A stretch of 63,683 nt of DNA, the filler included, from Octopus bimaculoides (lineage: Eukaryota), in assembly GCF_001194135.2 (NCBI RefSeq). It is 4 parts of 4 records of this genome, joined end to end, with 100 filler letters (N's around TTAATTAATTAA, not from the genome) between each part and the next. Parts side by side here need not be neighbours in the genome. Positions count along the whole stretch, not along the records: positions 1 to 17,715 come from NC_068987.1; positions 17,816 to 35,175 come from NC_068992.1; positions 35,276 to 60,559 come from NC_068982.1; 1 more part is not named here. One strand, 5' to 3'. The notes under the pieces were generated by a model that did no database searches, was not told where the DNA came from, and worked only from the letters and a program-made list of their open reading frames with translations. Shown one piece after another: positions 12,879 through 56,441 of the stretch. The first letter of the stretch is position 1. Every line of letters begins with the position of its first letter. A program made the position numbers and the translations under genes.

Positions 12879-13006
12879 GACTACGCACGTTTCGTGGCTA
12901 TATTTTCAAATAGATAACTAATAAAATCAATTCGATTAATAATTCGATTAATAATCAAATCGATCTATAATTAAATCCGTTCAAAAATATGGTCACTCGT
13001 CAGGTC
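12879..13006 (-). ncRNA. Type I hammerhead ribozyme motif with long stem II
   Basis: Minus strand: GAC-CTGACGA-GTGACCATATTTTTGAA...TTTGAAAATATAGCCAC-GAAA-CGTGCG-TA-GTC. All core nucleotides canonical, G10.1-C11.1 pair, 17-bp stem II with 2 mismatches, stem I 3 bp. Confidence 0.75.
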
Positions 13007-13014
13007 TAAAATAA

Positions 13015-13058
<44 letters not shown>

Positions 13059-51518: not shown

Positions 51519-52553
51519 CGTTGCGAAGAAAGAAAATGAGAATATTCGTAGACAGCAATTACAGATATCTATAACTTAATGGCAAAGACGACAGACCCCT
51601 AAAATCGATGCTTATGTAGTCGAGGGGGCTATATAGATTCAACAAGGTCATGGAGCTCTGCGCGTTAGTATTGTGGGCTTGACTGTTGACAGAGATAACA
51701 CTGGATACGAAAGCTTTCGTGCTTGACTGTGTCAGACTTATAAAATCAGAATAGTATGAAGATTTGCAGAGTCCTAAGCGACTTCCCTGCCAAATAGTAC
51801 CTCAAAACTCACGTGATAGCTCACCTGCAGCAACATTAAATGATCCAAGACGACGTAAAATTTTTAACAGAACGANNNNNNNNNNCAAGACGACGTAAGA
51901 TTTTTAACAGAACGAAACTAGTTCTAATTGCCAGTGTGAGATTTCCCAATTTTTAAATTTAAATTTTATGTTTTATATCAAACATATAAGCTGCGAATTT
52001 CTGATTAGTCGCTCGGAAAAACTGTTTACCTAAAACAAAACGATGCCACTTTTTGTTAACGTCAGCTAGCCTATAAACTTGTGTTTCCACTAGGCTATGA
52101 TTTTTCTCAGTAAAAAAAAAAAGTTGTTGGCATCATCAATTTGGACAGCATACATTTGTCTGTTTCCTTTACGGATTCCATAGTAACTTTCTAAAAACCA
52201 TTGGTGGTCGTCATAGTTTTTACTGAAACTAAAATTTGGACATTGATTAGAGGTTTTAGTGCTTTTAAGAAGCAGGGAAACAACCAAGGATTAATACACA
52301 AACACACTTATACACTATAAAGATTATTTATTAGCAGACAAGGGTAGTCCTTTAAGCGGAATTGAACACGAGAAGCCAGATTTATGGCTAATTTGATTTA
52401 ATTGAAAATTTAGATCTGCGAACTGCTAAAAAAAATGAATGTTTATGTTCTGTATTTTTAGTACATATTAGTGATATCCTCTAAATAAGCATATATGCTT
52501 TCCAAACGTTTTCACGAATAAGATTGCTTATAATTCTTTAGGAACATGCAACA

Positions 52554-54027
52554 TCTATTTTTTTATTACCCACAAAGGGGTCAACAAAGAGGGGACATAC
52601 AATTACATTGGGGACACATAAAATGTACAATTAAAATGAAATACAAAATAAATAAAACGTATGATATAATGAACGATGAATAAATGTAAAGATGGAAATG
52701 GTGTTACCCGCCCCATCAGGCAACACCACTTGCTTCCTTTCCCCTATTCTCCATTATATCCAGCCCAAATCTCTTTGTCAGATCGTCAGCCCAAATAAAA
52801 TGTGGTAGCTTCTCCCTATCTAAGTTAACTTCCCACATTTCATAGACTACATTTTGTCTCTCTATGTACGTCTTTTGTTGTGCCGATAATAGTATCACCG
52901 TATACTTCATATCTACTGTAGAAATATGCACCGTATTATCCCATCCGAAAGCCTCTTCAAACAGTTCTTCATCATTAATTATACACGCAAAACATTTTTT
53001 GGAGGGGGAATTTTTTGAAACATTGTCTGTCTGCACTCTCTTCTTTTGTTTTTGTGATGGAGGGGAATGGGAAGGCTTGGTGTCTGCAGGGTGAGGGTGG
53101 GACGGAGAGAGTACGGGCGGGTCTTGGGTAGTTTGTGTGTGAAGTTCTGAGTGTATAGGACTTACCTTTTTTCTCTTCCTTCTCTTTTCCCATTCTNNNN
53201 NNNNNNGCATTTCGCTCTTATGTGGCCCTTCTGACCACATTTGAAGCAGCGCGGTATCCTGCCCTCAACTCTTACCTTCATTACAACTTCGTCCAGAGTT
53301 ATTGTTTCCACCATCTCTTCTAATGCCTCACTTGAACCCTGCACTATCATATTTAGGACCTGGCCTTTCCAGTTTGAACTTTTTGACTTAGTTGCCTGGA
53401 GCACCACTATTTTGCCGTCAGTCTTAGCCAAAACAGCGGCCGCTATCCAGGCAACGTCAATTTCCGGAGGAATTCCTTCTACCCATACCCGAGACGCTCT
53501 ACGTCCCAGGTACGTGGGTAGAAGTACAAGCTCTTCATCCTTCAATGATGTTGCCGCATGCTTCTTTGTCGCGTCTTCGTTTGTAAATCTCAATTTTATT
53601 TCACCAGATTTCGGCCCTCTGGCAAGATATGATATTTCTTGCCAAATTGGCTTCAGCACCTTCTCCACCTGCGCCGTCATTATGTGGTCTATCTTCCCTT
53701 TCTTAATTAAGTTTTGTACATTATAGTTCTGCTTTTCATACATTTTCGTTATTTTGAGCGGAGGGGTCACGTTAACGTTGTAACCGTCTCGCCTCAACAA
53801 CGTCTTATATTTCTCTGTATCAATTTCTACATTTTCCTCTTCTTTTCGGGCAACCTCCGCAAACTTCCTCTTATCGAGTTCTACATCCATAGCGTCAACA
53901 GCCTTCAACGATTCTTCCTCAGATGTCGACAGCTCAGACCCGCTAAAGTCTGAGTAAAAGGTATTCCTTCTATTTTTAGCCATACAAACTCTCAAAGAGA
54001 GAACGTACGACTACACCGCTGCAAAGC
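52554..54027 (-). mobile_element. ORF1-only non-LTR retroelement (half-LINE-like), L1/Tx1-type ORF1 with CCHC zinc knuckle
   Basis: ORF 53995->53162 ends ...VEGRIPRCFKCGQKGHIRAKC and continues past a 10-N gap to a stop at about 52716. After about 160 nt of 3'UTR it ends TGTCCCCTCTTTGTTGACCCCTTTGTGGGTAATAAAAAAA. Imperfect 11-bp direct repeats AACATGCAACA (52543-52553) and AGCACGCAACA (54028-54038). No EN/RT ORF. Confidence 0.7.
52716..53995 (-). CDS. Retroelement ORF1-like protein (about 420 aa, Cys-X2-Cys-X4-His-X4-Cys knuckle), interrupted by a short N gap
   Basis: ORF track 53162..53995 and 52716..53240; intact CFKCGQKGHIRAKC knuckle. Frame across the gap at about 53197-53206 cannot be verified. 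Confidence 0.65.
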
Positions 54028-56441
54028 AGCACGCAACAAATAAAACAATCCTTTCTGAAAGATATTTCACAAATAACACAATCCTTTACTGGCCAGGCAG
54101 CACTTCCCGGAACATGCGACATCATTTGAAAGATGGAAATTAAAAGTTTAAGCTGAACCATCTGATAGCTTTTCTCGAAGGCGGGAAATACTTTGTCATT
54201 GATATGCAAATTGTCACAGTGGCACGCGTTACGTAAGTGAATAGTATTATACCACACAAGCAGGTTATTTATTTAGTTATTAATTAATAATAATAATAAT
54301 TATTATTATTTTTTTTTTTGTAAAAAAATCCAAGACGCTTACCTGCTGCTCAACATATGGGCAATTAGTAGTTTCATAGTAGACAATCCCCTTTTGCTGT
54401 GACCATTAATATGTTCTTGTGTTTTGTCAGAGGGAGTCACTTGGTTCGATAACGTAATTTTTGAGCATTCTACACACGTCTGATCAAATGAACTCGGCAT
54501 CAGCTGATTTAAAAGGACAAGACTTTTAAGATTTCATAAGGCTTCAGGTTTCTCGTAGCAAAAACACAGAAACACTCAACTTTTTAGTGACCGAACTTGC
54601 TGCTGTTGCTACAAATACTACTACTATTAGGGTATCCTTCGTCTCATCATATTACTTATTTCCAATTTTAATAGGGACTGTAATCGATTTTGTTGAATTA
54701 ACATAAAAATGGTTAAATATTCCAGAAGTACGAAGAATATTCTACCATTTCACTCACAATCAATGTGATATAGTTTGTGACAAAGCTTTTGAACTACAGA
54801 TATAGTCCGTTCGTCAGGTTTTTATGATGAAGACACATGCCTAAGGACGCTGGTAATGGTATCATGCGTAGGACCTGGAAGCGAACTAGTTTAAAAATTC
54901 GGCTATACTTCATCCTTTTCAGTATATACTACAATATACCCATTATAGTTTCTGATTTAGGCACAAGACCTGCAAATTTGAGGGTAAAGGATTAAGCGAT
55001 ACAATCAAATCCAGTTCTTGACTGATACTTTATTTTATCGATCCCATACGAATGAAAGGCAAGGATGATCTCGGTTGGATTTGAACTCAGAACAAATGAG
55101 TAAATTATTTTTCCGATTCTCTAACAATTCTGAAGTCTAACTGCCTTACAATGGCTTCCTCATTATGTCAGATAATTATAAAAATTAGATTGTTTAAAGA
55201 TTTTCATAATCTGGAAGCTAGTTATCTTAGAAAGTTAACAAAATTCGTTGATGAGAGAAACTTAGTTCATTTAACAACCGTAACAAATAATTTCACAAAA
55301 TTTCAAATTCTAAATCTTTTGCGAATTTTTTGGTCACTTCTTCATATTTTATAGCGCTATTATTTTCCATATCGAGGGTAGTGGATTGTAGAATCGCTTG
55401 AATAATGATAAAAATATTTTACAATATTTGGTCAGATAGCTCCCCAAAATCGATATACTAATTGCCGGTCAAGTGCTGGGTTTATTGAAGTCGATTTACG
55501 CACGCATCTCCAAATTTTTGGTATTGTGCCAATGTTAAAAACTACAGCTTTCCACAGTCTCATGCAAAGAGTTATGTTAAACAAAACCTTTTGTAGATTC
55601 AGAGGCAGAAGTTCGGGAAAAAAATTGGGATTGACTCTCAAACTATCTAGCAATTGATTAAAGAAAATGTTTTGTTTGTATATCCAGAATTTACGGTGAA
55701 ATCACAGAATTAGCTGTGGATAATTTTTAATTATGTAACAATATTACATACGTACTCGGGTTCAGAGATGTGTGTAACTGTAAAATTCTGCCTGGAGAAA
55801 GCTATCACCCACTCATATTTTCAACAGACTAAATCTGTGCCTTTTTTGAGTGCAAAGAAACAAAAATGTGATAATGGTATCCTCACAGATTTCAGATCCC
55901 CACAAATGCATATTTAAACAAACTAGGGCGCGGTCAAATTGTGTTTTCTTGAGTCAACATGTCAAAATCGGTGAAGGACACTAGACATTGTAATATATAT
56001 ATATATATATATAATTAACTAAGCAAATATAACGAAAATTTTTGCCCCTTATTACATAATAAACTTTGTTGAATCAACAGGACGTATATTTTGTCTTATT
56101 TATAAAGCAGAGAATGTTTACTTAATATCCTAAATACTTGAACTGCAGCATGGGAACTCTCTGACCTGTTGCTGACAATATTAAGATGTTCGTATTAAAT
56201 ACTGCAGCTTTTCTAATAATAAGTTTCTCAAATAAACATAATTCTCGACGAAACTACAAATCTATAACTAAAAGAAAAGCGAAAAAGAGAGAGAACATCT
56301 TTCAATTACATTAGTTTTAATATTCCCCAAAATTTGTTACGTAATTTGTCCGAGATTACGTAAAAAATTATGGTAAATATTAAAACTAGTGTAATTGAAA
56401 GATGCTGATTCTCTCTTTCGTTAAACGTACAGATTTACAGA

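Follow-up and report, generated by a model that had tools for sequence, protein, structure and literature searches.

How does a genome come to hold several hammerhead ribozyme motifs of differing sequence with no reverse transcriptase (RT) to be seen beside them? The question is raised by 63,683 nucleotides (nt) of Octopus bimaculoides DNA, filler included (NCBI RefSeq assembly GCF_001194135.2), called here the window, in which a preliminary description saw four near-complete type I hammerheads and several decayed ones, and proposed that families of small, self-cleaving, non-coding retroelements related to Penelope-like elements (PLEs) or retrozymes had colonised this locus. The finding is real, mostly known biology and half misread, and its value lies in a motif that was set aside as decayed. 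With good confidence we regard the motifs as scattered remains of three kinds of element: stubs of coding PLEs (families A and B), one retrozyme-like insertion (C/D) and non-coding repeats (E and F). With distinctly less assurance we lean toward seeing E and F as non-autonomous, retrozyme-like parasites of Naiad elements, with an active hammerhead of undescribed wiring whose blocks stand in the order S-G-C and whose core is open between A9 and G10.1 and is closed by a four-helix junction. There is no one locus: the motifs cannot share one because the window joins four unlinked stretches (joints at 17716-17815, 35176-35275 and 60560-60659), the motif-bearing first, second and third of which belong to contigs C7, C12 and C2, respectively, of the 2.34-Gb genome.

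The supposedly decayed type I motif at 12228 is really the CUGAUGA block of a differently ordered hammerhead motif, and this permuted layout, found there and at 28504, was absent from the earlier reading. In longer copies of family E the order is cleavage block, GAAA block, CUGAUGA block (S-G-C), and family F has the same order. A descriptor for it gave 11 hits in 618 kb of retrieved loci against 0.07 expected from 15 shuffles, 8 of them from the E and F loci targeted and 3 from two families, G and H, that were not. Two other readings of E, type II and type I with a loop of 230 nt on stem II, fail on stems I and III. Family E, with 4315 candidates in the genome, is a unit of about 727 nt, non-coding in form. 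Its 3' tail stands directly before its own 5' segment in 13 of 30 loci, and in the two units whose period was measured (726 and 729 nt) the longest ATG frames have 74 and 173 codons. A 270-bp ‘tandem’ at 12198-12726 was rejected as the unit, being two truncated copies. E and F have no open reading frame (ORF) with N-terminal GIY-YIG and RT in the copies seen, E closing on itself after about 727 nt and F, in one locus, after 853 nt. The three window copies (Table 1) are not expected to cut, because those of E lack the cleavage block and two stems of F are broken; in the F copy the predicted cut follows 28549, with GAAA at 28532-28529. Family G, a relative of E (72-80%), includes two copies that are 99% identical and carry an intact permuted motif (L190:2231-2364 and L197:2322-2562), although PMC8557442 reports that cephalopod Naiads were inactivated long ago.

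What would hold blocks in such an order together? Pairs were counted in five lineages of E, F, G and H (L041, its core lost, was left out of the helix table) and from anchors, since MAFFT lost the helix register between the E and F clades. Watson-Crick pairing is found at 15 of 15 positions in stem III and 19 of 20 in stem I, with two or three pair types per position, and in all four families the S-G-C order goes with a full core and with covariation in both these stems. The stem II strand before GAAA pairs at 24 of 25 positions with a strand that lies upstream, ahead of the cleavage block, versus just 3/25 or 8/25 Watson-Crick pairs with the strand after CUGAUGA; E, F, G and H appear to lack an unbroken block C, in which CUGAnGA runs straight into its own stem II strand. 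When strands are swapped between clades only about a quarter of positions pair (6/36 in stem III, 13/48 in stem I, 17/60 in stem II), and in RNA reads of G both partners of one upstream stem II pair vary (144 and 127 of 288, unphased). All core bases are kept in the five lineages and in octopus Naiads, as are the A15.1-U16.1 pair and a UH triplet, which is GUC, GUA or AUC. A further helix, P4, links the upstream segment to the linker between GAAA and CUGA, while hairpin P0 closes beside G10.1 and hairpin P5 begins 0-3 nt after A9. Stem II is predicted to pair with the upstream strand and to open the core between A9 and G10.1. The 5' part of the modelled strand order would run P0 hairpin, 5' strand of stem II, P4, then stem III' with the cut site and stem I'; the 3' part would run stem II' with GAAA and stem III, P4', stem I with CUGAUGA, then the P5 hairpin, and P0 and P5 would meet where A9 normally joins G10.1.

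The nearest described relatives are the type-SGC hammerheads, HRIMA-1 and its variants (PMC10085705). E and F resemble these in the S-G-C order, the full core, an extra helix and the shortness of the linker between stems I and II. In type-SGC, however, CUGAnGA leads directly into its own stem II strand, and the two were treated as inseparable, whereas E and F take that strand from upstream and have a hairpin on either side of the opening. Further, the type-SGC RNAs came from metatranscriptomes, none from the genome of a known organism, while E and F lie in abundant genomic repeats of an animal. A second likeness is to Naiads. No canonical hammerhead is reported in them in PMC8557442, where Naiad_Ovul is marked ‘HHR_half_core’, yet by eye the S-G-C layout recurs at the 3' ends of the Naiad_Obim and Naiad_Ovul consensus sequences (its File S5), where stem III is ATGG/CCAT, stem I CTGCCC/GGGCAG and the upstream stem II GACACC/GGTGTC. 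E and F share with Naiads the layout, the upstream stem II strand and P4 at the 3' ends of those two consensus sequences, and differ from them in sequence and in having no Naiad ORF in the copies seen. It seems likely, from the shared motif only, that a Naiad-type element mobilises E and F. E is also like retrozymes in its head-to-tail form, and unlike them in its 727-nt unit and permuted motif (PMC7229834; 10.64898/2026.07.22.740005). A literature search of titles and abstracts found none describing the permuted layout, subscription papers and the supplements of PMC10085705 and of the bioRxiv preprint being outside its scope.

Does the motif cut? Among E copies, 9 of 25 begin in the interval 0 to +20 relative to the predicted cut, versus 0 of 16 at -21 to -1 (p=0.007), and for E and F together the figures are 13/44 and 2/31 (p=0.018), L202 (+32) being excluded. 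Intact copies of the permuted motif probably self-cleave.

The second kind of element accounts for both motifs near 46 kb, previously taken as separate elements. An inverted 5' segment abuts a direct part that two later inserts interrupt (about 46268-46546 and 46627-46810), so that one insertion carries both. Of 305 C/D candidates in the genome, 40 were scored (L008 and L009 were left out of the counts; L153, a duplicate of L143, was also dropped). The unit has 339 nt, 42.5% GC and a longest ATG frame of 58 amino acids; in 21 of 31 loci the end of one unit runs into the start of the next, with at most 2.2 contiguous units seen, and copies are 79-87% identical to the consensus. The 3' ends form two clusters about 40 nt apart (25/31), a doubling that resembles the PLE ‘tail’ (PMC11167929), and inverted partners are present at 14 of 29 loci. 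To all appearance C/D is an old, non-coding, head-to-tail unit, a fossil retrozyme bearing the marks of Penelope-type insertion. It is like metazoan non-LTR (long terminal repeat) retrozymes in its 339-nt length, GC content below 45%, lack of coding capacity, head-to-tail arrangement, single type I hammerhead per unit and company of PLEs in the same genome, and it appears to fit both that class (PMC7229834; 10.64898/2026.07.22.740005) and the PLE origin proposed for it (PMC7229834). Li et al. 2026 (10.64898/2026.07.22.740005) call a non-LTR retrozyme ‘active’ when two units in a row each carry a complete hammerhead. C/D is a fossil, with an intact motif in 4 of the 31 loci examined. At unit positions 214-230 five loci (window 46268-46546, L144, L145, L147 and L151) have a small insert with similar ends; this site is likely a DNA transposon target hotspot.

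Families A and B are another matter. The genome has 432 candidates for A and 1401 for B; among the 40 of each that were scored, identity is 89-95% in A and mostly 95-99% in B. The 3' ends of the copies coincide at TA runs, and the points of 5' truncation vary. In family A 19 of 26 copies are followed at the 3' end by a TA-like run, part of which may be element sequence, and in family B 17 of 29 are, 11 others running on into the tail; an inverted partner occurs at 4/30 A and 9/30 B loci, and a complete hammerhead is kept at 14/30 and 25/30. The window copy of A has a 3-bp stem I, a stem II arm of about 100 nt and a predicted cut after 12882, and its 5' side enters an assembly gap; that of B has a palindromic stem III without a loop and a predicted cut after 14221, and ends in (TA)n. 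Neither stem III can form a hairpin, the self-duplex being worth -8.8 kcal/mol in A and -10.3 in B, in agreement with the dimer model of PMC4209133. Directly before stem I (window 13004-13015, minus strand) nearly all A copies have a pyrimidine run ending in AG, resembling the end of the intron that, in the Penelope of Drosophila virilis, overlaps helix I (PMC4209133). In the B copy RNA read depth doubles at 14200-14237, the source being a related family with B's stems I and III and another stem II (L271).

Judged by their sequence, A and B are the 5'-truncated ends of coding, Hydra-type PLEs and not non-autonomous elements, because longer copies continue into an RT and GIY-YIG frame. Longer A copies enter the endonuclease frame, and one locus (L073) has an inverted pseudo-LTR, RT (YRDD), GIY-YIG and a 3' pseudo-LTR over about 3.6 kb. 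For B, two walking steps lead upstream from the hammerhead, first to the endonuclease C-terminus at a distance of about 1.6 kb and then to the RT; L271 and L272 have RT, endonuclease and B hammerhead all on one strand. Altogether RT followed by a C-terminal GIY-YIG lies upstream of the hammerhead at L073 and L072 (A) and at L271, L272 and L108 (B), in broken frames with gaps. By tblastn the RT matches a 716-amino-acid protein, P0001, at E=4e-49 for A (L073) and 5e-44 and 3e-15 for B (L271 and L272). P0001 was the single relative returned by a protein search (41% identity), and its nearest Atlas clusters include carriers of GIY-YIG and RVT_1 (score 0.96-0.97), a lead only. This RT has many genome relatives (26,624 candidates, 62 scored). 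In both families the CxCX5C linker, CxxC and CxH are present and CCHH is absent, and A has RIKWKA and DKT near the N-terminus. A ‘Neptune’ label was rejected, since the motifs fit the Hydra definition.

Hydra-clade elements as a rule have canonical hammerheads and (TA)n targets, and their length is generally, though not strictly, below 3 kb (PMC8557442). A and B are like these elements in the C-terminal GIY-YIG without CCHH, the CxCX5C, CxxC and CxH motifs, the (TA)n targets and a hammerhead near the 3' end, A also in its RWK-like and DKT motifs, while B stem II is closed by U-U as in many entries of File S2 of that paper. They are unlike them in greater length, in long stem II arms and in hammerhead sequences that match none in File S2, Hydra-1_oBim being different. 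Single dispersed hammerheads derived from truncated PLEs have been described (PMC4209133), and A, B and C/D share with known PLE hammerheads this dispersal as single motifs, palindromic stem III, short stem I and opposite-strand pairs 100-700 bp apart, with no substantive difference. The type I motifs merely add new families to known classes.

All three kinds were likely copied by Penelope-type reverse transcription. The sequences show the family memberships, 3' ends that are fixed and have a second, ‘tail’ end, variable 5' truncation and inverted 5' segments, RT and GIY-YIG ahead of the hammerhead in the longer copies of A and B, a head-to-tail arrangement in C/D and E, and covarying helices in E, F, G and H. 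Tandem copies would be transcribed and the hammerhead would free unit-length RNA, in dimeric form where stem III consists of nothing but a palindrome; a Penelope-type protein would then nick AT-rich DNA and reverse-transcribe from the RNA 3' end, mostly stopping early.

Several findings weigh against parts of this account and are best set beside its rivals. For E and F, no Naiad ORF is linked to either family, and the head-to-tail order of F, with its 853-nt period, is seen in one locus only. The five lineages fall into two clades, so independent changes are few; the upstream stem II strand was chosen after a scan for best pairing; P5 is weak and G-U rich in E and G; and in G and E3 the downstream strand may pair through G-U, up to 5/5. 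That last point bears on whether the motif is an ordinary type-SGC hammerhead, its stem II formed with the strand after CUGAUGA (a small insertion between the two being allowed) and the upstream pairing an alternative or inhibitory fold: this layout is proven active (PMC10085705), and F has GGCC 6 nt after CUGAUGA. We think this improbable, however, since the downstream pairing does not covary and is all but absent in H (0-1 of 5), P5 occupies the downstream strand in F and H, and the upstream strand pairs with compensatory changes. As to cutting, the 5'-end window was picked after the data were seen, only 2 of 44 E and F copies begin exactly at the predicted cut, and an RT that stalled at a stable fold would leave much the same picture. 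RNA reads on both strands (one 2026 run, about 6% of it read, of a library type that can miss cut ends) have no pile-up of ends at the predicted cut in B (412 reads) or G (724 reads), nor do reads from X24 and contigs from X1, X2 and X5 hold a cut site or an informative joint; a comparable library is reported to have missed the cut ends of the anole PLE (PMC11167929). Might the motif then be a hammerhead-derived fold that does not cut, or cuts only with protein, serving as a recognition signal for a Penelope-type protein? The break of the A9-G10.1 link, where known alignments allow just 1-2 inserted bases (Eckert et al., PMC10085705), speaks for it, as do the missing RNA ends and the anole PLE hammerhead, which is protein-assisted and dispensable for insertion in vitro (PMC11167929). 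The conservation of core, A15.1-U16.1 pair and triplet out to octopus Naiads and the excess of insertion starts just past the predicted site speak against it, and we give it a minority chance, though a larger one than the ordinary type-SGC layout.

The remaining doubts concern C/D, A and B. A complete hammerhead survives in only 4 of 31 C/D loci, and none of these hammerheads lies in the longest tandem. Could the 339-nt unit be the internally repeated pseudo-LTR of a coding PLE whose body has decayed or escaped sampling? Its insertion marks are those of PLEs, its copies are old and the scored loci are a fraction of the candidates; yet P0001 matches in none of 39 C/D loci, the unit is in none of 34 RT-bearing loci, and its end meets its start at 21 of 31 loci; we consider this improbable. 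On the coding side, Pfam and PDB sequence searches name neither P0001 nor the ORF pieces of A and B (PDB gave 0 matches), the N-terminus of B was not recovered, and A at about 3.6 kb (L073) and B at over 3.9 kb (L271) exceed the usual Hydra length. The reading of the preliminary description, that all the motifs are independent non-coding retrozymes or non-autonomous elements, could appeal to the window's want of an ORF, the shortness of most A and B copies and the truly non-coding nature of C/D and E. Longer A and B copies nevertheless reach RT and GIY-YIG on the same strand, and head-to-tail short units were found in none of 30 A and 30 B loci. It is accordingly very improbable as a whole, and for A and B it already stands refuted if the copies with an ORF are not chimeras; its small non-coding retroelements live on as C/D and the family behind 12228.

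Table 1. Hammerhead-bearing and related features, by position in the window
Feature	Position	Strand	Remarks
Family E copy 1, 5'-truncated	12198..12462	+	GAAA block 12198, CUGAUGA block 12228; without cleavage block
Family E copy 2, truncated, 82% to copy 1	12467..12737	+	core at 12502; without cleavage block
Family A 3' stub, Hydra-clade Penelope-like element	12738..13058	-	hammerhead core 13003-12882
Family B 3' stub, second Hydra-type Penelope-like element	13970..14349	+	hammerhead core 14151-14221
Possible decayed type I hammerhead	28215..28262	-	core altered at two positions, stem III a 12-nt palindrome; not above chance
Family F copy, permuted hammerhead, all blocks	28314..28592	-	stems I and III broken by point changes; CUGAUGA at 28504
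C/D inverted 5' segment, unit positions 64-312	46009..46249	-	complete hammerhead 46195-46153
C/D direct part, about 1.5 units of 339-nt monomer	46244..47161	+	damaged hammerhead 46933-46970

How many type I motifs does the window contain? By descriptor, three complete ones (13003-12882 on the minus strand, 14151-14221 on the plus, 46195-46153 on the minus), against a mean of 0.06-0.095 and a maximum of 2 in 200 local dinucleotide shuffles. The fourth of those first listed (46926-46976), at 46933 on the plus strand, fails the descriptor, its stem III and cut triplet being damaged, and is still a member of the C/D family. The self-complementary stem III palindromes are as they were quoted, the link to Penelope and retrozymes was right, and tblastn with the Penelope-type protein gives no match within the window, in keeping with the failure to recognise an RT or GIY-YIG ORF there. 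An Rfam search of the window has zero hammerhead matches at E<=10. The supposedly decayed motifs fare worse: 15594 and 54776 are rejected by the type I descriptor even with two mismatches, and a genome search gave no second copy spanning either. With two core mismatches allowed, five sites pass (mean 1.3, maximum 5, in 30 shuffles), and 28254 on the minus strand, at the motif noted at 28215, is among them, at a level that chance reaches. Among the retrieved loci 15594, 28215 and 54776 have no full-length relative, 28215 not having been searched alone in the genome.

Elsewhere in the window, two ORF1-like frames with a CCHC knuckle (53165-54010 and 48452-49379, both minus) have no RT seen adjoining; the former matches Pfam zf-CCHC at E=0.001, and Atlas neighbours are CCHC proteins (score 0.91). 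A homeodomain exon at 30989-31372 (plus; Pfam E=1e-12), which we take to be goosecoid-like, shares its stretch with a long Gln/His/Ser-rich frame at 18227-19696. A DDE transposase fragment at 17371-17715 (minus; Pfam DDE_3 E=3e-4) is presumably mariner-like, and 44952-45155 and 45794-45997 form a 204-nt inverted repeat, 95% complementary, 638 nt apart.

If the permuted reading of E and F is true, their motif is the ribozyme that Naiads were reported without, and non-circularly permuted hammerheads exist in thousands of copies in an animal genome. The assumed inseparability of the CUGAnGA block and its stem II strand would be overturned, and non-circular hammerheads would move from anonymous metatranscriptomes into the retroelements of animals. 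Why do Naiads lack hammerheads? That question, a stated open point, would become testable with a 150-nt transcript.

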